From the IMG/VR virus record IMGVR_UViG_3300037420_002497: a stretch of 64,000 nt of DNA, one strand, 5' to 3'. The DNA is from a virus. How positions within the stretch are numbered: position 1 is the first letter of the stretch; each line of letters opens with the position of its first letter. The position numbers and the translations under genes were made by a program. The notes under the pieces are model-generated. The model made no database searches, was not told where the DNA came from, and saw only the letters and a program-made list of their open reading frames with translations. Shown piece by piece: positions 13,846 through 61,916 of this stretch.

Positions 13846-14763
13846 ATGTACGAAGCCATCACCCCCGCCGCCCGTTTTGGTCGCGACGCCACGGTGATCC
13901 GCAAGGACCGCGCCCTGACAACCGATGAGCTGCGCGCCGTGGTCCCGTCCCTGTTCGCCCCAGGCGCTCACGAAAGCCGCTCGCAGCGCTACACCTACAT
14001 CCCCACCATTGATGTCCTGAACGAGCTGCGCAAGGAGGGCTTCATGCCCTTCAAGGCGATGCAGTCCAAGTGCCGCGACGTGTCTAAGCGCGAGTACACC
14101 AAGCACGCGCTGTGGCTGCGCCACACCTCGCAGTACGACCGGGGCCAGCTCAAGCAGGTGGGCGATTCGGTGCACGAGATCGTGCTGCTCAACAGCCATG
14201 ACGGCACCAGCGCCTACCAGATGAAGGCCGGCGTGTTCCGCTTGATCTGCACCAACGGCATGGTGGTCAGCGACGGCGCGGTGCAGGACATCCGCGTGCC
14301 GCACAAGGGGGACGTGGGGCATGAGGTGATGCGCGGCGCTTTCGAGGTGCTGGACGGCTTCACCCGCGTGGTGGGCCCCAAGGTCGAAGACATGCGTCGC
14401 ATCACGCTCAGCGAGGAGGAGCAGACCATCATGGCCGACGCCGCCCTGATGCTGCGCTTCGATGACCCGAGCCGGCCGGCGCCCGTCACCGCCAACGACA
14501 TCAACGTGCCGCGCCGCTGGGAGGATCGGGGCAACAGCCTGTGGCTGACTGCCAACCGCTTTCAGGAGAACCTGACCAAAGGCGGGCTGGATGGCCGCAA
14601 CGCGCGCGGCAAGCAGATGAAGACCCGCCCGGTGCAGGGCCTGGATCGCGACGTGGGCCTGCAGTCGGCGCTGTGGCAGCTCACCGAGCGCATGCGTGCC
14701 CTCAAGAACGGCGAGCCCATCCCCGAGATGGCGCGCCCGGCTGAGGATCTGGTCGCCGCCTAA
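13846..14763 (+). CDS. DUF932-family protein (305 aa), a family typical of plasmids and ICEs
   Basis: motifs YTYIPT, WLRHTSQ and LLNSHDGTSAY...RLICTNGMV recognised from memory of the DUF932 family. Confidence 0.65.
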   Translation: MYEAITPAARFGRDATVIRKDRALTTDELRAVVPSLFAPGAHESRSQRYTYIPTIDVLNELRKEGFMPFKAMQSKCRDVSKREYTKHALWLRHTSQYDRGQLKQVGDSVHEIVLLNSHDGTSAYQMKAGVFRLICTNGMVVSDGAVQDIRVPHKGDVGHEVMRGAFEVLDGFTRVVGPKVEDMRRITLSEEEQTIMADAALMLRFDDPSRPAPVTANDINVPRRWEDRGNSLWLTANRFQENLTKGGLDGRNARGKQMKTRPVQGLDRDVGLQSALWQLTERMRALKNGEPIPEMARPAEDLVAA

Positions 14764-20860: not shown

Positions 20861-21099
20861 GTGCGCTTCTCCCCGAAGATGCCGTCGAAGATGTCGTCGA
20901 AGGCGCCACCGAACGCCCCGGGCTGGTCGCCGCCGGCCCCGGCAGGCTGGACCTGGGGCGGCTCCTGGCGCGTGCGCTGCATCCGGCGGATCAGGTCCAC
21001 CAGCAGCAGCACGTCCCTGGCCACACGCTCGCGGTTGGCCTTGGACATGCCATCGAGCACGTCCCTGGAGCGCTTCTCGATCTCGTCCAGCTGGTTCAT
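20857..21099 (-). CDS. hypothetical protein (80 aa)
   Basis: start-stop overlap with the HAD-like gene. Confidence 0.45.
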   Translation of the reverse strand: MNQLDEIEKRSRDVLDGMSKANRERVARDVLLLVDLIRRMQRTRQEPPQVQPAGAGGDQPGAFGGAFDDIFDGIFGEKRT

Positions 21100-21593
21100 C
21101 ACCGCTCCCAGGCCAGTTTCTCGCTCACCCACCCCGGGTGCCGGGACTCGCCGGCATACGGGCTCTCGCCGAACAGCTCGCACAGGTCGCTGAACTTCGC
21201 CCAGGTCAGCCCCTCGCGCGGGTCCACCTGGATGAAGCGCGAGAGCTGCCCGTCCAGCATCTCTGGCGCGTCGTCCAGGATGGCGTACTGCTCCGCCTCG
21301 GGGTGCTGCGCCAGCCAGTGCGCGATCTCCAGCCCCCGGTTCCCGAGCTGCGGCGTGGCGTCGATGATCGGCAGGCCGAACGCCTGCGCCGCGTCCTGCC
21401 AGCGATGGTCCTGGCGCCACGCCGAGGACCACACGATGGAGATGCCGGCCGACTCGCACAGCCGCCGCAGCAGCGCGATGGCCACCTGATCGAACATGCC
21501 CTGGTGGTGGAGCTTCGACGGGTAGCCGCCGAAGGCGAGGAAGGTGCGCGTGCTGTTGAGCACTCCGTCTACGTCGAGAAATAGCGCCTTCAA
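21099..21593 (-). CDS. HAD-superfamily phosphatase-like protein (164 aa)
   Basis: N-terminal FLDVDGVLN, the HAD motif I (DxD); TTG start. Confidence 0.55.
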   Translation of the reverse strand: MKALFLDVDGVLNSTRTFLAFGGYPSKLHHQGMFDQVAIALLRRLCESAGISIVWSSAWRQDHRWQDAAQAFGLPIIDATPQLGNRGLEIAHWLAQHPEAEQYAILDDAPEMLDGQLSRFIQVDPREGLTWAKFSDLCELFGESPYAGESRHPGWVSEKLAWER

Positions 21594-22678: not shown

Positions 22679-23389
22679 TCAGGCTCCCTGTTCGGCCGCC
22701 TCGCGGGCGACCATCCACAGTTGACGAATACGACGATCAAAACGGCCCCAGGCCTCAGGGTCGTTGTCCAGGTCGGCGCGCGAGCGGATCTCGCACACCA
22801 GACGCAGGGTTTCGGCGGCCAGGGCGGCGCCCGGGTCGCCCGTGACTTTCCTGCCGGCCAGCCGCGCGCGGGCCAGCGCGGTGGTCTTGACGAAGCGCTG
22901 CTCCAGCCAGAGCTGGAACGCATCCTCGGCACACCAGCGGGCGGCCAGCGCGCCGCGCACGCCCCCCTTCCCGCGCTCGGGCTCGGGCGGCTGGCGCTGC
23001 TGCTCGCGCTCCAGCTGGTGGTCGCTCTTGAGCGCGGCCACCACCAGTTCCTTGCCCGGCTCCTTGAACCAGCGGTCGCGCACCAGCTGCGCATCGCAGG
23101 GCTCGACGTAGCCATAGAGGCGCACGTTGCCGCTGTCCAGGGTCTCGACCGAGGCGCTGGTGGCGCGCACCGCCTCCTCGCCAGGGCTGCCCAGCGGCAG
23201 CAGCGCCATCGCGGTGCCGCGCGTCTTGAACCACAGGAAGGTGGCGTCGGCGTGCACCCCCTTCTCGATCTTCAGCACGAACTTCAGCGAGTCGTCGGCC
23301 GAGGTCCAGGAGCGCCCGGACTTGGCTTCGATCAGGCTGTCGCCGACCAGCTGCCCGTCCTGGCCCACCTCGACCCCGGCCTGCATCAC
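22679..23389 (-). CDS. hypothetical protein (236 aa)
   Basis: ORF with protein-like composition. Confidence 0.55.
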   Translation of the reverse strand: MMQAGVEVGQDGQLVGDSLIEAKSGRSWTSADDSLKFVLKIEKGVHADATFLWFKTRGTAMALLPLGSPGEEAVRATSASVETLDSGNVRLYGYVEPCDAQLVRDRWFKEPGKELVVAALKSDHQLEREQQRQPPEPERGKGGVRGALAARWCAEDAFQLWLEQRFVKTTALARARLAGRKVTGDPGAALAAETLRLVCEIRSRADLDNDPEAWGRFDRRIRQLWMVAREAAEQGA

Positions 23390-23745
23390 GCCTCCCGCTT
23401 GCCGGCGCAGCTGGCGCAGTCGCCGCCGCAGCCGTCCTTGGACGGGCTGGCTTCCACGTAGATCACGCGCTCACCCAGGTTGCGGATCGGCATGCCGCCC
23501 ACCTCGCGCACGTCGCCCGGCAGGATGGCGGTGGGCGGCGGACGCGTGGGCCTGGGCGGCGCAGGCGGGTAGTGCGACGCCGGCCGGTTGCGCAGGCGCC
23601 CCTGGTGCTCGGCCCAGGCGTCGGCATTGCGGTTGTGGGCCCACTCGCTGGCGAGATAGAACACCACCAGCGCGACCATGGCCGCCAGGAACGGAAACCA
23701 GGGCGAGGTCCGCGCCCACTCGACGATCGGGTGCAGCCAGTCCAT
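23386..23745 (-). CDS. NfeD-like membrane protein with Cys-rich C-terminal tail (119 aa)
   Basis: N-terminal transmembrane segment; start overlaps the SPFH gene stop codon; pairing with SPFH is typical. Confidence 0.45.
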   Translation of the reverse strand: MDWLHPIVEWARTSPWFPFLAAMVALVVFYLASEWAHNRNADAWAEHQGRLRNRPASHYPPAPPRPTRPPPTAILPGDVREVGGMPIRNLGERVIYVEASPSKDGCGGDCASCAGKREA

Positions 23746-24665
23746 CAGCGCCCCACAGGCACACCCATGAACGGGATCGGCGCGCCGGCATACATCGACT
23801 GCGGCAGCGCGCCATCCCAGCGCTCGGCCTTCACCTTCTCGACCTCGATCTTGCGCAGTTCCAGCACGTCCTGGCTCTGGCGCAGCGCCTCGTTCTGGAT
23901 GCGCAGGGCATCGGCCTGGGCCTTGGCTGCCGTCATCACCGCATAGGCCGCACCGTCCGCCGTCCTGCGCGCCGCCTCGGCTTCGGCCTCGGCCACGGCG
24001 ACCTTCTCCTTCTGCTCGGCCTGCACGCGCAGCACCTTGTTCTCGGCCGCCTGCCGCAGCTCCTCCTCAGTCACCTTGCGGTTGATCGCCTCCATGTACT
24101 TCTCGTTGAAGGCGAAGTCCGTCATGTCGTTGCTGATGATGTGAGCACCGAACACGGCCACCTTGGCACCCAGGCGCTGCTTCACGTCCACCGACACCTC
24201 CTCGCGCCGCGTCACCAGCTCGGGCGCGGTGAAGCCGGCCGTGGCCGCCTTGAAGGCTTCCTGCGTCGCGGTGGCGACATAGGGGTCCAGGTCGCCGTCC
24301 TTGGAGAAGCGCTCATAGACCATCACCTCCTGGCCCGGCGTGATGGCGTAGCGAGGGACCATGCTGACCGTCACCGGCTGGCGGTCAGCAGTCGCACCCT
24401 GCGCGCCCTTCACCTCCACCGAGTTGGCGCGCATGTTCATCAGGTGCATCTGCTCCCAGGGGAACAGCAGCATGAAGCCCTCGTGATGAACGGCGGTGGT
24501 CTTGCCGCCGATGGTGATGATGGCGCGATGCCCGCTGGGCACCGAGCGCAACGGCCAGTAGGCCATGACGACGATCAGCGCCAGAAAGACGGCGAAGGCG
24601 CAAACCGATGCCTGGACAACCTTCAGCTGGCCGCGCTCGGTGAAGAAGACGTTCTTGATGTTCAT
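23745..24665 (-). CDS. SPFH/band-7 (prohibitin/HflKC-like) membrane protein (306 aa)
   Basis: N-terminal transmembrane segment, then a PHB-like domain, then an A/E/K-rich coiled-coil tail. Confidence 0.7.
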   Translation of the reverse strand: MNIKNVFFTERGQLKVVQASVCAFAVFLALIVVMAYWPLRSVPSGHRAIITIGGKTTAVHHEGFMLLFPWEQMHLMNMRANSVEVKGAQGATADRQPVTVSMVPRYAITPGQEVMVYERFSKDGDLDPYVATATQEAFKAATAGFTAPELVTRREEVSVDVKQRLGAKVAVFGAHIISNDMTDFAFNEKYMEAINRKVTEEELRQAAENKVLRVQAEQKEKVAVAEAEAEAARRTADGAAYAVMTAAKAQADALRIQNEALRQSQDVLELRKIEVEKVKAERWDGALPQSMYAGAPIPFMGVPVGR

Positions 24666-25140: not shown

Positions 25141-25740
25141 TCAGGTCAGCTCGCTGAAGGCGTAATCGGCGATCAGCAGGGCGTCCGCTTGGTTGTGCGC
25201 CTTCACCGGTTGCAGCTGATGAGCCAAACCGGGGAAGCGCTCGGCGGCCTTGTCGCGGCTGGCGTTCTTGTCCGCCTTGCCGCCGTTGGCCGCCTTCTGC
25301 TCTTTGGTCTCGGTGAGCTTGAAGTGCTCCTTCCACGCCTGCGGGCGGATGGCCCGGGTCTCGTGGCCGAACACATCCAGGACGCCCTCGACCACGCCGC
25401 GCGAGTGCATCAGGCTGCCCTGCGACTGGATCGAGTTGCCGTGCGCGCCGCCGTTGCCCTGCGGGCGCGCCTGCACGTCCTCGTAGACGATCAGCGCCGC
25501 CTCGCCCGGGGGCACCAGCTGGCGCAGCAGGGCCAGCAGCTGGTCGCCGCAGATGCGCACGGCCTGCTTGACGCGGGTCTTGGCCTTCTTGCCGGGTACG
25601 GGCGCCTTCTTGCTTCTGACCTTGACCACCTTGGCCTCACCCACCTTGCGCAGCGGCAGGTCGTGCACCTCGGCGCCGCCGTTGTGGTCAACCTTGGCCA
25701 CGGCGCCCGTTTTCCCGATGTCAATGCCGATGACAACCAT
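25141..25740 (-). CDS. RuvC-like Holliday junction resolvase (199 aa)
   Basis: N-terminal VIGIDIGKTGAVA, and then LIVYED and ADALLIADY motifs, as in RuvC/YqgF-fold nucleases. Confidence 0.6.
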   Translation of the reverse strand: MVVIGIDIGKTGAVAKVDHNGGAEVHDLPLRKVGEAKVVKVRSKKAPVPGKKAKTRVKQAVRICGDQLLALLRQLVPPGEAALIVYEDVQARPQGNGGAHGNSIQSQGSLMHSRGVVEGVLDVFGHETRAIRPQAWKEHFKLTETKEQKAANGGKADKNASRDKAAERFPGLAHQLQPVKAHNQADALLIADYAFSELT

Positions 25741-25988
25741 TACCACTTGCTCTTTTGGAATTGACGAAACCACGGCTTGTTCTTCGGCGCCTGCAGCGGC
25801 TTGGGCCGGTCGCACAGCTCGGTCTGGGGCCACAGCCGGCCATCGGTACGCAGCACCATCCCGCTCGGGCCCACGCTGACCACCACCAGCCGCTGGCTGC
25901 CGTTCACGATCACGTCGCCGACCTCATAGGCCACGGCAGCGAAGCGCGTCACGTTGGACGCTTGCGCGAACGCCACACCGAACTTCAC
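25740..25988 (-). CDS. hypothetical protein (82 aa), GTG start
   Basis: GTGA overlap with the upstream gene and TAATG overlap with the downstream gene. Confidence 0.4.
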   Translation of the reverse strand: MKFGVAFAQASNVTRFAAVAYEVGDVIVNGSQRLVVVSVGPSGMVLRTDGRLWPQTELCDRPKPLQAPKNKPWFRQFQKSKW

Positions 25989-27539: not shown

Positions 27540-28463
27540 TCACGCTGCAGCTCCCGCCAGCCGGAAGATGGAGGACTGCGGCACCGGCATGCGCGGCGGC
27601 GGCTCCCGCCAGCGCCGGCCGCTGACGATGTCGCGCACCGTGACCGGCCCCAGCCCCGTGCGGGCCACGATCTCGGGGGCGGCCACGCCTTGCGCCTTGA
27701 GCAGGCGCACCTCGCGCGCCAGCTCCATGGTGCAGAAGCTGCGTTGGCGGCGCATCGTGTCGGCCCGCTTGGCGTTGGTCTCGGGGCGGCCCATGACGCC
27801 CTGCTGGTGCAGCCAGCTCATGTGCTCCGAGCGCGTCATCGCCTTGAGGTGGCGCAGGCACAGGCGGTTGCCGCAGGCCGGCGCGATCGTGAAGCCATCG
27901 GGGCTGCGCCCGTACATCTCGCGGTACACGCGGTTGCGCACGTCGATGTGCCCCTGCACCGGGCGGCCCCACTTGTTGGTCTCGCGCGTCCACAGCAGGC
28001 AGCGCCCGACGTGCCGGGCCAGCGTGGTGGGCGAGCTGTCGGAGCGCTCCACGCGCTCCCGCAGCCACACCTCCAGCCACTCGCGGCGCGCCTGGACGTG
28101 CGCGTCCTGCAGCGGCTCAAGCAGCGAATCCAGCCACTTCTGGCGCTTGGCGCGCTGCCCCGGGGTCTGCAGATCCAGCGCGGTGATGAGGCGCGGCTTG
28201 GCCTTGCTCTCGACCCGGGCCTGCTCGATCACCTCGGCCGCCTCGATGGCGGCGCTGAGGGCGGTCTTGGGCGTGGCCGGCTTGGCGGCGGCCGGGGCGG
28301 CGCAGCCCGGGCAGTGCCACCACGTCTTGTCCACGCGCTTCCAGCCGGGCCCTTCCAGGCGGGGCTGGTGGCACTTGTCGCACAGCCGGGTGAACAGCTG
28401 CGCGGGCGCGGAAAACGCGATCCGGCGCTCCGGGGCGCCTGTGGCGGATTCGTAGTTTCTCAT
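27540..28463 (-). CDS. HNH endonuclease-domain protein with N-terminal zinc finger and C-terminal HTH (307 aa)
   Basis: CGNRLCLRHL is an HNH_3-like motif; CDKCH...WHCPGC is a zinc finger. Confidence 0.55.
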   Translation of the reverse strand: MRNYESATGAPERRIAFSAPAQLFTRLCDKCHQPRLEGPGWKRVDKTWWHCPGCAAPAAAKPATPKTALSAAIEAAEVIEQARVESKAKPRLITALDLQTPGQRAKRQKWLDSLLEPLQDAHVQARREWLEVWLRERVERSDSSPTTLARHVGRCLLWTRETNKWGRPVQGHIDVRNRVYREMYGRSPDGFTIAPACGNRLCLRHLKAMTRSEHMSWLHQQGVMGRPETNAKRADTMRRQRSFCTMELAREVRLLKAQGVAAPEIVARTGLGPVTVRDIVSGRRWREPPPRMPVPQSSIFRLAGAAA

Positions 28464-29251
28464 CGGGTCTGGGGAGTCTTGGACCGGGCCTCGCGCAGCT
28501 CGCGCGCCTTGGCCGCCGCCTCGGCGCGCTGCTGGGGCGTCATCTCGTCGGCACGCAGGTACTGCTGGGTCCGGTCGGCATCACGGGAGGGGACGGTGGG
28601 GGCCGGGCCGGCGGGCAGCGAGCCCTGGTGCAGACCCTTGGCTTGCAGGGCGGCTTCTTCGCGCCGCTTGGTCACGATGGCCAGGGCGTAGGCAAAGCCC
28701 CGGCGGCGCTCGGCCGCCTCGCGGGCGGCGCCGACGAACTCCTCTTGCGTGGCGCCGGACTGCAGCAGCATCAGCAGCCCGGCATGCCCGGGGTTCACGT
28801 CCTGGCAGCCCACCTGCCGCATGGCCCGGCACACCAGACCGGCCTGGGTCGGCACCACGCGCTGGTCGCCCGTGACGGGGCTGTTGGACGGTCCAACAGG
28901 CGCGTCCGCCTCGGGCAGGCGGTGCTCGTCGAAGCGCGGGATGACGACGCCGCCACCGTCCGCGCGCAGCCAGTCAATGGCCACCAGCGCCTCGGCAAAC
29001 CCGGGGATGCCCGTCTTGCGGTCGATCTGGCGTGCCGGCAGATTCGGCAGCTGGCCCTGGCGCCCGTGCCGGCTCACCGCCGCCCAGAGCCAGTAGAGCC
29101 CGCCGATGACGTGCGCCTCGGCACAACCCGTGACCTCGCACAGGGCGGCCACGCGGGGGTCATCCCACAGGTTCGCGCGCATGAAGATCCCCGGGCCGCT
29201 CACGCCGACCCCCGCGCACGAAAGACCCGCTGCATGGAAAATTTCCCGCAA
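28460..29251 (-). CDS. hypothetical protein, possibly replication-associated (263 aa)
   Basis: second gene of the early operon after the Cro-like gene; basic C-terminal tail; contains one copy of the 17-bp palindrome. Confidence 0.4.
   Translation of the reverse strand: MREIFHAAGLSCAGVGVSGPGIFMRANLWDDPRVAALCEVTGCAEAHVIGGLYWLWAAVSRHGRQGQLPNLPARQIDRKTGIPGFAEALVAIDWLRADGGGVVIPRFDEHRLPEADAPVGPSNSPVTGDQRVVPTQAGLVCRAMRQVGCQDVNPGHAGLLMLLQSGATQEEFVGAAREAAERRRGFAYALAIVTKRREEAALQAKGLHQGSLPAGPAPTVPSRDADRTQQYLRADEMTPQQRAEAAAKARELREARSKTPQTR
28882..28898. promoter_or_regulatory. dispersed palindrome site 2 (TGTTGGACGGTCCAACA), inside a CDS
   Basis: perfect 8-1-8 palindrome. Confidence 0.5.
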
Positions 29252-29383: not shown

Positions 29384-29674
29384 TCACGCCGTTTGCGCGG
29401 TCTCCGCAGGGAGGCCGGGCGCCCCAGGACTGCCGATCAGCTCAGGCCAATGGATCGGCCAGTCGAGCGGGCGCAGCTTCCAGCGCGGCACCTGCCCGTT
29501 GGTTGCGCGCTCCACCTCGGCGCAGCGATACAGGGGAACGGCCTTCCACCCCTTTTCGTCGCGCTGCTTCTTCCACCGACTCACGACCACCGGGCTCACC
29601 CCCAGCTCGCGCGCAAGACGGGCTGCAAGGCCGCGCTCGGGCTGCATGAGGTACTGCCGGATGTCCATTTCCAT
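29384..29674 (-). CDS. YdaS/Cro-like HTH regulator (about 96 aa; a GTG at 29716 would give 110 aa)
   Basis: LARELGVSPVVVSRWKK...VPLYRCAEVERATNGQV...LRPLDW resembles YdaS/Cro-family proteins. Confidence 0.55.
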   Translation of the reverse strand: MEMDIRQYLMQPERGLAARLARELGVSPVVVSRWKKQRDEKGWKAVPLYRCAEVERATNGQVPRWKLRPLDWPIHWPELIGSPGAPGLPAETAQTA

Positions 29675-47598: not shown

Positions 47599-48828
<1,230 letters not shown>

Positions 48829-59620: not shown

Positions 59621-60019
59621 AGCAAAGCGCTCCTCACCCAAGAGCAGTTCGATGCCGCCATCCGCCAGGGTGGCGTCATGAAGGACCACAACATCGAGCT
59701 GGCGCGCCAGATCCTGGTGCTGGGCGTGCCGAACAACGCTGCGGCCAAGGCGGCCGACGTGCTGCCATCCCAGGCCAGCACGATCGTCAAGCGGGTGCTG
59801 CAGTACCACCAGACCGCCCTGACCCTGAAGAAGACCGCCGCGCAGTTCATGGCCGAGAAGCCGCCGCGTGAGCAGGTGATCGAGGCGCTGCGCCCCGAGC
59901 TGCTGAAGCTGCACAAGGCCAAGTACACGGTCGAGCAGCTGATCGAGTTCCTGGCGGCCAATGACGTGCACGCGAACCGCAAGGAAGTCCTCGCGATCAT
60001 CGAAGGGAGCAACCCGTGA
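59621..60019 (+). CDS. hypothetical protein upstream of parA (132 aa; an alternative ATG lies at 59585)
   Basis: AAGGGAG RBS lies 6 nt upstream. Confidence 0.45.
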   Translation, partial: SKALLTQEQFDAAIRQGGVMKDHNIELARQILVLGVPNNAAAKAADVLPSQASTIVKRVLQYHQTALTLKKTAAQFMAEKPPREQVIEALRPELLKLHKAKYTVEQLIEFLAANDVHANRKEVLAIIEGSNP

Positions 60020-60846
60020 GCAAGACCCTCAAGAGCCTGATGCTGGTCGCCCAGAAGGGTGGCGTGGGCAAGACCGCGATCGCCACGCTGCTGGCGCACT
60101 ACCTCGCCCTGCTGCGCGGCAAGCGCGTGCTGGTGATCAACCTGGACCACCAGAAGAACCTCGTGCGCCCGCTGTCGCAATCCGGCAAGGTCACGATGTC
60201 GGCCATCACCAGCGACAAGCTGCTGACCGACCCGGCCGCCGATGTCGAGGCCGCGCCCTACGTGCTGGTGCCCGGCGACAAGGACGCACTGGAGAGCCTG
60301 GAGCGCCAGCCCGACCGGCACAACGCCTTCGCCGGCAACTTCCGTGCGTTCCTCAAGCGCATGGAAGGCCGCTTCGACGTGGTGATCGTGGACACCAACC
60401 CGAACCCGGACATCCGCGTCCTGGCCGCGATGGTCAGCATCGACTACGTGCTGGCGCCGATCCAGCTCAACCAGGAGAGCATCGACGGCATCGCCGACCT
60501 GTTCAACGGCAAGCGCGTGGGGATCGGCCGCATCCGCGCCACGCTCAACAAGCAGCTCAAGTTCCTGGGCATGCTGCCCAACCTCGTGAAGCCGGTGCCG
60601 TTCCAGCGCACGAACCTGGAGAAGCTGCTGGCCGTGCCCGAGTACCGGGCGCAACTGATGTCGATGGTCGATGACCCGACCGAGATCAGCCAGCTGGCCC
60701 GCATCCCCGACCGCACCGTGATCGCCGAGATCCAGGCCAGCGGCAAGGTGCTGTGGGAGGTGAAGGACAAGACCGCCGCGCGCGACGCCTGGGCCGAGAT
60801 CAAGCCGGTCATGGACCGCATCGCGCATCTCATGGGCGTGCAGTGA
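60016..60846 (+). CDS. parA: ParA/MinD-family partition ATPase (276 aa)
   Basis: deviant Walker A AQKGGVGKTAIA; GTGA overlap with the upstream gene. Confidence 0.75.
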   Translation: MSKTLKSLMLVAQKGGVGKTAIATLLAHYLALLRGKRVLVINLDHQKNLVRPLSQSGKVTMSAITSDKLLTDPAADVEAAPYVLVPGDKDALESLERQPDRHNAFAGNFRAFLKRMEGRFDVVIVDTNPNPDIRVLAAMVSIDYVLAPIQLNQESIDGIADLFNGKRVGIGRIRATLNKQLKFLGMLPNLVKPVPFQRTNLEKLLAVPEYRAQLMSMVDDPTEISQLARIPDRTVIAEIQASGKVLWEVKDKTAARDAWAEIKPVMDRIAHLMGVQ

Positions 60847-60884
60847 TTCGCCACCACTGACGCCCCCACCGACAGGAGCCACAC

Positions 60885-61916
60885 ATGAGCATCGACCTTT
60901 CGCAATCCCTGGACCTGGGCGACCTGAGCGCCACCGCCGCCACCGGCGAGCCGCTGAAGCTGTGGGCCGCCACCATCCGGCCCAGCCGCTGGGCCAACCG
61001 CCACGAGCTGAGCTTCCTGAGCCCGGAGTTCAACGCCCTGAAGGAGGAGATCAAGAACGCGGGCGGCAACGTCCAGCCGATCAAGGTGCGCCCGCTGGCG
61101 CAGCCCGAGGACGGCGTGGAGTACGAGGTGGTGTTCGGCCACCGCCGCCACCGCGCCTGCCTGGAGCTGGGCATCGAGGTGGCCGCCGTGGTCGAGGCCG
61201 TGGACGACCAGCATCTGTGGGCGCAGATGGAGCGCGAGAACCGCGCCCGCGAGCCGCTGTCGGCCTACGAGCAGGGGACGATGTACCAGCGCGCGATGGA
61301 CGAAGGGCTGTTCCCGTCCATCCAGGCGCTGGCCAAGGCGATCGGCCGCAGCGCGGGCGACATCAGCAAGGCCATCTCCATCGCCCGGCTCCCGCCCGAG
61401 GTGGTGCAGGCCTTCGGCTCACCCCAGGACATCGGGTTCCGCGACGCCAAGCCGCTGAAGGACGCGGTGGAGGCGGCGCCCGAGGCGGTGGCCCAGGCCG
61501 CCCGCGCGCTGGCCGCCGTGCCCCAGGCGCTGCCGCCGAAGGTGGTGGTGCAGCGGCTCGCCGCCGCCGCCGGCATGGCCGATGACGACCAGAACGAAGC
61601 CGAGGAGGAGCCGGCCGAGGCGGCTGTTGGACGGTCCAACAAGGCCAAGGCAGCGCCCGCGCCGAGCCCGGCAGCGCCAGCTGTTGGGCCGTCCAACAAG
61701 CCCGCGCCGGCCCCGAAGGCGGCCCCGGTTGCGCACCTGCGGGTGGTGGTCGAGGTCGGCGAGGAGCTGATGGAGCTGGTCACCGACTGCCGCCCGAAGC
61801 GGGGCCTGATCCCGGTGCGGCCAGTGGCCAGCGATGAGGCGCCGCAGTACCTGCCGGCGGGCAAGGTGCGCATCGTCCGTGCCGAGGCCCAGGCGCCCCG
61901 CACGTTTACGGGTTAA
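60885..61916 (+). CDS. parB: ParB-like partition protein (343 aa)
   Basis: N-terminal ParB/Srx-like motif VVFGHRRHRACLELG; follows parA; CAGGAGCCACACATG start context. Confidence 0.65.
   Translation: MSIDLSQSLDLGDLSATAATGEPLKLWAATIRPSRWANRHELSFLSPEFNALKEEIKNAGGNVQPIKVRPLAQPEDGVEYEVVFGHRRHRACLELGIEVAAVVEAVDDQHLWAQMERENRAREPLSAYEQGTMYQRAMDEGLFPSIQALAKAIGRSAGDISKAISIARLPPEVVQAFGSPQDIGFRDAKPLKDAVEAAPEAVAQAARALAAVPQALPPKVVVQRLAAAAGMADDDQNEAEEEPAEAAVGRSNKAKAAPAPSPAAPAVGPSNKPAPAPKAAPVAHLRVVVEVGEELMELVTDCRPKRGLIPVRPVASDEAPQYLPAGKVRIVRAEAQAPRTFTG
61625..61641. promoter_or_regulatory. dispersed palindrome site 5 (TGTTGGACGGTCCAACA), inside the parB 3' region
   Basis: perfect palindrome. Confidence 0.5.
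61682..61698. promoter_or_regulatory. dispersed palindrome site 6 (TGTTGGGCCGTCCAACA), inside the parB 3' region
   Basis: one mismatch. Confidence 0.45.

Follow-up and report, generated by a model that had tools for sequence, protein, structure and literature searches.

A prohibitin-type SPFH gene in the early operon of a phage, followed by a near-orphan membrane protein that is not NfeD

Prohibitins and the bacterial HflK/C complex are SPFH proteins which regulate FtsH-type or m-AAA proteases (PMC2636767; PDB 7wi3, 9cz2). The bacterial p-prohibitins form the subfamily SPFH4, no member of which has a demonstrated function (Hinderhofer et al. 2009, PMC2636767). SPFH proteins of some other subfamilies are paired with NfeD, typically a protein of 140-150 residues in which three hydrophobic stretches accompany an OB domain that is soluble and all-beta; such partners are known for SPFH1, SPFH2 and SPFH5 and none for SPFH3, SPFH4 and SPFH6-12 (PMC2636767). 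SPFH/prohibitin genes have been noted repeatedly in phages (PHROG 200; CSP3, phiP27 and PAK_P3-like phages), where their function has only been hypothesised: phage genome papers propose an HflKC-like modulation of FtsH and lysogeny, without experiments (PMC8540360, PMC4936722, PMC10269572), and one such paper calls the role of the phage SPFH gene unclear. The IMG/VR virus record IMGVR_UViG_3300037420_002497, a stretch of 64,000 nucleotides referred to here as the window, carries a further gene of this kind. It encodes an SPFH protein of 306 residues (23745-24665, minus strand) and is followed in a minus-strand early operon by the genes for a 119-residue protein, X (23386-23745, minus strand), and a third protein, Y. 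A preliminary description, made from the sequence of the window, took the SPFH protein and X for an SPFH-NfeD pair on a mobile element. The SPFH protein is a p-prohibitin within the early operon of a phage, and X is a membrane protein of a different kind from NfeD.

The assignment to p-prohibitins (SPFH4), and not to HflK/C or the stomatins, follows from both sequence and fold, since the best matches in each are p-prohibitins or PHB1/PHB2. The protein matches the Band_7 family PF01145 over residues 41-219 (E=5.7e-24; 85.6 bits, the cut-off being 23.6) as well as phrog_200 (E=2.7e-37). A profile of 29 family members run against the PDB retrieves PHB2 at 1.8e-23, PHB1 at 3.2e-22 and HflK at only 1.7e-6, and no further SPFH chain at E<=0.001. 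In a Foldseek search with the predicted structure the first four ranks are all PHB1/2 (6e-16 over 291 columns) and are followed by the cages of stomatin, HflK/C-FtsH, erlin, QmcA(-YbbJ) and flotillin, all at a probability of 1.00. Added to this preference of profile and fold for PHB1/2 are the lack of a match to any HflK or HflC model of NCBIfam at E<=0.01 and the lack of an adjacent second SPFH gene, the neighbouring open reading frames (ORFs) being without a Band_7 match. Like prohibitins, the protein consists of an N-terminal anchor, an SPFH domain, a long helix and a short C-terminal region, and it is encoded by a single gene without NfeD or HflK/HflC pairing; unlike them, it is phage-borne in an early operon, is about 21-25% identical to human PHB1 and PHB2 and lies on a long branch of its family. 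With HflK/HflC of E. coli it has the SPFH fold and the cage-forming architecture in common, whereas it is a single gene and not one of an hflK-hflC pair.

The AlphaFold2 model (a monomer computed from a 29-sequence alignment; mean predicted local distance difference test score, pLDDT, of 80) shows this architecture in full. The membrane anchor is predicted as a helix at residues 16-35 (24561-24620, minus strand, as are all features of the two proteins given below), and the most hydrophobic 19-residue window of the protein begins at residue 16 with a mean Kyte-Doolittle value of 2.64. The SPFH alpha/beta domain, to which the Band_7 match belongs, spans residues 39-186 (24108-24551; pLDDT about 85-92) and leads into a single predicted helix of 94 residues (188-281; 23823-24104), corresponding to the coiled-coil wall region of SPFH cages, which Foldseek aligns with helical parts of the cages of prohibitin, HflK/C and stomatin. 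A C-terminal motif, W-D/N-G-x-L-P...Y...P-x-P-F (residues 283-299; 23769-23819), is evident from the family alignment and falls within a match to phrog_38808; its residues W283, G285, P288 and P298 are invariant in 29 of 29 aligned family members. The membrane-anchored PHB-domain protein with a coiled-coil tail that had been anticipated is therefore borne out, by PF01145 and by the predicted helices 16-35 and 188-281. By analogy with other SPFH proteins it would be expected to assemble into a ring or cage. The numbers of lysine and arginine residues flanking the anchor (2.9 in the N-terminal and 1.9 in the C-terminal flank) give a weak positive-inside signal.

Two further readings of the SPFH protein were considered and rejected. 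PHROG 200 bears the label 'lipoprotein', but the sole N-terminal Cys (ASVC) precedes the hydrophobic stretch and no lipobox is seen by eye. The combination of an anchor, a periplasmic coiled coil and a small overlapping gene is reminiscent of spanins; against this stand the robust SPFH match and the position of the gene in an early operon and not in a lysis cassette.

Within PHROG 200 the protein is grouped with CSP3 orf75, phiP27 L05 and the SPFH proteins of Rhizobium phage RHEph10 and Acinetobacter phage nACB2. It is a distant member, as tblastn matches in cultured phages cover 86-95% of the protein at an identity of only 22-28%, whereas its nearest relatives (50-57%) are all metagenomic or chromosomal. 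At least 851 homologues are found at E<=1e-5, the best of them about 50-58% identical, under names such as 'prohibitin family protein' (NCBI) and 'HflC (stomatin/prohibitin superfamily)' and from Acidovorax, Variovorax and Burkholderiaceae. Pattern scans yielded 53 viral-contig loci with the SPFH gene, at 42-57% identity, and 233 stretches in species-representative genomes, mostly of Burkholderiales, Methylotenera, Nevskiales and Xanthomonadales. A neighbour-joining tree mixes viral with genomic copies and places that of the window on a long branch; to judge from such sequence comparisons the family moves between phages and Burkholderiales chromosomes. In bacterial genomes the genes that follow the SPFH gene have housekeeping functions (AIR-synthase-related proteins, ABC transporters and pyridoxal phosphate enzymes, for example), so that in Burkholderiales and related Proteobacteria the family is also an ordinary chromosomal gene. 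In phages the setting is a different one. The commonest products of the two genes upstream and the one gene downstream in viral loci are integrases, Erf-like and RecE-like recombinases, single-stranded DNA-binding proteins, NinG/Rap, helicases and methyltransferases; in Burkholderia phage CSP3 the SPFH gene (orf75) lies directly downstream of the genes for a replication initiator and a DnaC-like protein, and in phiP27 the SPFH gene (L05) is located near int/xis. An early recombination/replication module is the typical home of the phage copies, and the copy of the window is no exception.

The C-terminal end of the SPFH protein has matches of its own. Residues 245-306 (window 23748-23930) alone match phrog_38808, and the last 60 or so residues are 44% identical to segments of phiP27 (L145, 2501-2680) and of Erwinia phage Pastis which are annotated as 'putative serine protease' or 'lipoprotein'. 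It seems that this cap region is conserved, or moves, independently of the SPFH domain.

The protein encoded immediately after the SPFH gene had been described as a NfeD-like partner with a transmembrane segment and a beta-barrel. X is not NfeD: its sequence, the number of its hydrophobic segments and its predicted fold all disagree with such an identity. The Pfam NfeD profile does not match X at E<=0.1, and even at E<=10 neither the whole of X, nor its soluble part or tail, nor the whole or a part of its one homologue (P0122, see below) gives a match to NfeD. An hhalign comparison with E. coli YbbJ reaches a probability of 0.3% over 5 aligned columns, and a phmmer search of the PDB sequences, which include the QmcA-YbbJ entry 8z5g, recovers no NfeD protein at E<=10. 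X contains a single hydrophobic segment (residues 14-33; 23647-23706), found by a hydrophobicity scan and in the AlphaFold2 model, whereas the hydrophobic stretches of YbbJ span residues 10-75. The single-sequence AlphaFold2 model of X consists of helices at residues 5-13 and 17-52 (pLDDT >90), a proline-rich linker, a hairpin at residues 79-90 (pLDDT about 50) and a disordered tail, and Foldseek finds no match to it in the PDB. As this model is based on one sequence and is poor in its C-terminal half, the fold test by itself is weak evidence; the tests of sequence, length and segment number agree with it. Of the predicted 'transmembrane-plus-beta-barrel' topology the one membrane segment stands and the beta-barrel does not, the modelled hairpin being all there is of it, so that structure prediction upheld the architecture proposed for the SPFH protein and failed to uphold that proposed for X. 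The superficial likeness to SPFH-NfeD operons such as QmcA-YbbJ, YuaG-YuaF and PH1511-PH1510 lies in an SPFH gene whose codons overlap with those of an adjacent gene for a small membrane protein; in E. coli, too, qmcA overlaps with ybbJ, and the SPFH gene comes before that of its partner. X differs in having one hydrophobic stretch where these partners have about three and in leaving only about 31 residues between linker and Cys tail, compared to an OB domain of about 58 residues in YbbJ. Finally, X adjoins a prohibitin-type SPFH protein and not one of SPFH1, SPFH2 or SPFH5.

What X might be instead is indicated by very few sequences. A word-indexed search among 5.8 billion proteins returned only X itself, and HMMER over 1.84 billion representatives found one true homologue, P0122 (141 residues, E=7.6e-9); the only other match, a repetitive protein of 851 residues, is taken as spurious. 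A two-sequence profile of X and P0122 detected no further homologue, and scans of metagenomes with patterns from X, and of viral and metagenome sequences with patterns from Y, produced nothing beyond this phage. P0122 is encoded on a 1.4-kb contig (L142) in the gene order SPFH-X-Y, again with overlapping stops and starts. Compared to the window, the SPFH tail on this contig is 76% and Y 79% identical, X only 30-40%, and P0122 contains an insertion of 22-23 residues which leaves the reading frame intact. Conserved between the two are the N-terminal M-x-W-L, the membrane segment, the linker PPAPP, a block ILPGxxRxVGG...N.G...IYV.A.P apparent from their alignment (residues 74-101 of X; 23443-23526) and the identical motif CGGDCASC, a CX3CX2C arrangement (residues 106-113; 23407-23430), within a tail CGGDCASC..K.EA that is exact in both. 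X ends six residues after the third Cys.

The preliminary description had singled out this Cys-rich tail, CGGDCASCAG (residues 106-115), as unusual, and it is: among 6192 ORFs of 40-200 residues from all loci, only X and P0122 combine a transmembrane segment with a C-terminal CX2-4CX2C motif. From its sequence, the CX3CX2C tail probably binds metal. The only recurring Pfam match of X is to the FeoB-associated Cys-rich family PF12669, which scores 15.6 bits with the whole of X and 18.1 bits with the tail, below the cut-off of 27 (best E 0.0034). Like X, proteins of this family have an N-terminal membrane helix and a C-terminal Gly/Cys-rich tail. Their motif, Cx3-5Cx2-3Cx6-8C, has four Cys and is thought to bind iron (PMC8749426), whereas X has three Cys only, a score beneath the cut-off and, between helix and tail, a region longer by about 70 residues. 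No match to FeoB is present among the operon neighbours scanned.

The scarcity of homologues (one in 1.84 billion representatives), the low confidence of about 40% of the model and the proline-rich, low-complexity linker raise the question of whether X is no functional protein but an ORF, spurious or in decay, that occupies a GC-rich spacer flanked by real genes. This is highly improbable, given that the G+C content at third codon positions (GC3) of X, 0.93, is at the level of the neighbouring real genes, that the frame and the overlaps at both ends remain intact in the P0122 lineage despite 30-40% identity and an insertion of 22-23 codons, and that the eight-residue Cys motif and the membrane segment are kept in both proteins. 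Within a window of about 69% G+C, the three codon positions have a G+C content of 0.66/0.41/0.91 in the SPFH gene and 0.68/0.57/0.93 in X, a strong coding signature for both genes; the long antisense ORFs of the window are the usual by-product of high G+C. X would therefore be a genuine membrane protein, single-pass and fast-evolving.

Both ORFs of the minus strand coincide exactly with the positions first given for the pair, and gene calls by the Joint Genome Institute (JGI) on four contigs comprise the same three genes. In the sequence TGATG the stop codon of the SPFH gene and the start codon of X have one base in common, and the identical arrangement connects X to Y. Y (235-236 residues; 22679-23389, minus strand) matches phrog_19763 at E=1.1e-12. 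Its C-terminal region matches three PHROGs without an assigned function (phrog_19763, phrog_10379 and phrog_5358), and while its 79% identity to the gene after P0122 makes it far better conserved than X, it is as yet unannotated.

This arrangement could be interpreted as a dedicated module of two components, the SPFH protein and X, which would be functionally analogous to the SPFH-NfeD pairs without being homologous to them and in which the membrane helix of X would tether or regulate the cage and the Cys tail would sense or bind a metal or a cytoplasmic target. The one-base overlap of stop and start suggests coupled translation, the order SPFH-X-Y is kept in the sole other lineage that bears X, and, although the remainder of X has diverged to 30-40% identity, its CGGDCASC motif and ILPG...VGG block have been kept. 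However, overlapping stops and starts are the rule along the whole operon, and the two phages which bear X are close relatives (their flanks are 76-79% identical), so that the same gene order is expected in both without any functional link. In a tblastn search of 141 loci with X, only six near-identical copies of this phage were found, and X is absent from the other 130 or so SPFH loci. What follows the SPFH gene in 111 other non-redundant loci is heterogeneous (mean column identity 5%) and has no relation to X; a Pfam scan of 112 downstream proteins returned 62 families, of which the 25 commonest do not include NfeD. Of 50 viral loci, only about 7 have a small membrane protein encoded after the SPFH gene, and these proteins are unrelated to X. 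On two viral contigs with the SPFH gene (L032 5847-6092 and L057 6013-6237) the small downstream proteins, again unlike X, have a common motif, W-D-L/Y-R-K-W-T-Y-K-Q-W/F-F-P, and an N-terminal hydrophobic segment, and represent another lineage-specific membrane protein after a phage SPFH gene. A conserved partner gene following this SPFH family is ruled out by the tblastn search, the survey of downstream ORFs and the Pfam scan together; the SPFH gene of the family is a stand-alone gene with no conserved NfeD or second SPFH partner. The proposed SPFH-NfeD pair thus falls on both of its halves, its SPFH protein being of the prohibitin type, for which no NfeD is known, and the downstream gene being unrelated in the 111 other loci. 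The lysine and arginine counts around the membrane segment of X (0-1 against 3), taken with those of the SPFH anchor, hint weakly at opposite sides of the membrane for the SPFH domain (outside) and the tail of X (inside), which also speaks against a joint module. Such a module is rather unlikely. Still more of a long shot is the idea that X is the first example of a new class of partners for SPFH cages of the prohibitin type, a rapidly evolving, single-pass membrane adaptor whose invariant CX3CX2C tail binds iron or zinc.

The SPFH gene and X are embedded among replication and recombination genes of the same strand, in keeping with what had been described. The furthest upstream identified gene of the minus-strand run encodes a Cro/YdaS-like helix-turn-helix protein (29384-29674; PF15943, E=8.7e-12; P22_Cro, E=1.1e-5). 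It is followed by genes for a replication initiation protein (28460-29251; phrog_2509, E=5.8e-20), an HNH endonuclease (27540-28463; phrog_826, E=7e-7) and a RuvC-like Holliday junction resolvase (25141-25833; phrog_1770, E=4.1e-23), all on the minus strand, before the SPFH gene is reached. Between the Cro-like gene and the SPFH gene there is no promoter-like and no convincing terminator-like site. IMG/VR lists the contig among its viral genomes (IMGVR_UViG_3300037423_002669), and the element is a phage with a leftward early operon that runs from the Cro-like gene through the replication, HNH and RuvC-like genes; the placement of the pair inside the early operon of a phage-like element is accordingly confirmed.

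Exclusion, abortive infection and protease regulation had all been suggested as roles, of which the last appears, by analogy, to be the best supported. On balance it is probable that the phage-borne prohibitin-type SPFH protein is an early-expressed scaffold which modulates FtsH-type membrane proteolysis. The protein would be made early in infection, be anchored in the inner membrane by its N-terminal helix and assemble into the ring or cage that is typical of SPFH proteins. In this form, much as HflK/C and mitochondrial prohibitins do, it would act as a modulator of an FtsH-type AAA+ protease in the membrane or of the quality control of membrane proteins, and the stability of phage or host proteins would be altered as a result, comparable to the action of lambda cIII on FtsH. 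HflK/HflC-FtsH of E. coli provides the precedent, as this SPFH complex controls via FtsH how stable CII, a regulator of phage lambda, is, and lambda cIII is outlined in PMC1838920 as an early gene acting on FtsH.

Several points weigh against this proposal. For oligomerisation, topology and contact with FtsH the proposal draws on analogy, and the positive-inside counts are weak for both the SPFH protein and X. Among the p-prohibitins of bacteria none has been characterised (PMC2636767), and SPFH deletions in Pseudomonas aeruginosa gave no laboratory phenotype (PMC13086221). The metal-binding idea for X draws on a three-Cys motif and a sub-threshold match to PF12669, and the lysogeny-related genes among the proteins scanned are only the Cro-like and ParA/ParB-like ones, with no integrase.

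It is also conceivable that the SPFH protein organises or stabilises membranes independently of FtsH, for instance in a microdomain for replication or assembly or by preserving envelope integrity until lysis. Bacterial SPFH proteins are linked to microdomains, to the recruitment of PspA and to the stabilisation of unfolded membrane proteins (PMC8581546, PMC11222466), and the predicted architecture would be that of a complete cage-former. This role is nevertheless unlikely, as the window holds no specific evidence for it and the nearest relatives are prohibitins and HflK/C, the protease-linked branches of the SPFH proteins, and not flotillins.

A membrane-based device for superinfection exclusion or abortive infection would be in accord with the prediction that both proteins are membrane proteins, and an arms race would fit the speed at which X evolves. 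Accessory and exclusion genes of lambdoid phages such as sieB sit in the early-left region, like the SPFH gene here, and the neighbours of SPFH genes in other phages are the integrases and recombination genes of such an early region. Set against this, neither protein matches any of the 5027 defence models of PADLOC (PADLOC-DB 2.0, E<=0.01), by which a known defence system is rejected for both, and the literature searched holds no link of SPFH proteins to phage exclusion or defence. Both genes are located in a long early operon behind a Cro-like gene and have no promoter of their own, which means that expression from a repressed prophage is not expected, and in many bacteria the SPFH family is an ordinary chromosomal gene beside housekeeping genes. 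An exclusion or abortive-infection function is therefore improbable, and modulation of FtsH-type proteolysis remains the preferred role.

The locus was assembled twice at JGI, in 3300037467 Ga0395902_0000093 (L001; 122,796 bp) and 3300037423 Ga0395907_0000104 (L003; 123,000 bp). These contigs carry the locus at different offsets, and the part in IMG/VR amounts to 63.8 kb; the two independent assemblies, near-equal in length and different in offset, suggest that the genome is complete at about 123 kb and either circular or circularly permuted. The window has no DNA similarity to cultured phages and no Rfam match to a structured RNA. All four contigs agree in every nucleotide of the SPFH gene and of X (100% DNA identity), and a selection test on these near-identical contigs had no differences in either gene to score. 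In a 3.1-kb stretch compared between L003 and the window, 32 of 36 nucleotide differences lie in the 3' part of the RuvC-like gene, clustered in roughly 200 bp (window 25150-25360), which looks like a small recombination patch. On the plus strand, a gene for a ParA-like ATPase (AAA_31/CbiA, E=6e-22) is followed by one for a ParB-like protein (phrog_4715, E=1e-18) at 60016-61916; no integrase turned up among the window proteins scanned, and the element may be maintained as a plasmid-prophage.

Other genes of the window are connected with RNA. An RtcB-type RNA ligase is encoded on the plus strand (47599-48828; phrog_1075, E=7e-149), and on the minus strand, beyond Y, lies a HAD_SAK_2 gene (21099-21593; E=5e-28), whose product is of the 'Swiss Army Knife RNA repair' kind. 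The two may serve as a toolkit for RNA repair, directed against anticodon nucleases of the host. A related phage with an SPFH gene has an RNA_ligase gene (L006, 9135-9707) directly after it, and in another locus the gene for a Thg1-like protein follows. A DUF932 protein is encoded on the plus strand (13846-14763) according to a precomputed Pfam hit of JGI; DUF932 is typical of conjugative elements and some phages.

The window adds one divergent member to a known kind of phage SPFH gene, and its description as an SPFH-NfeD pair on a mobile element is to be dropped because there is no NfeD partner here. For testing the function of phage prohibitins the locus is no better placed than cultured phages such as CSP3. 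The CGGDCASC tail of X, conserved amid rapid divergence, offers a small and cheaply testable lead; if X were indeed an adaptor of SPFH cages, it would couple the state of SPFH/FtsH to a cytoplasmic redox or metal signal, or retarget host membrane proteolysis early in infection. For the SPFH gene itself, the early setting among recombination, integration and replication genes is consistent with a role in host takeover or in the lysis-lysogeny decision, exerted via FtsH.

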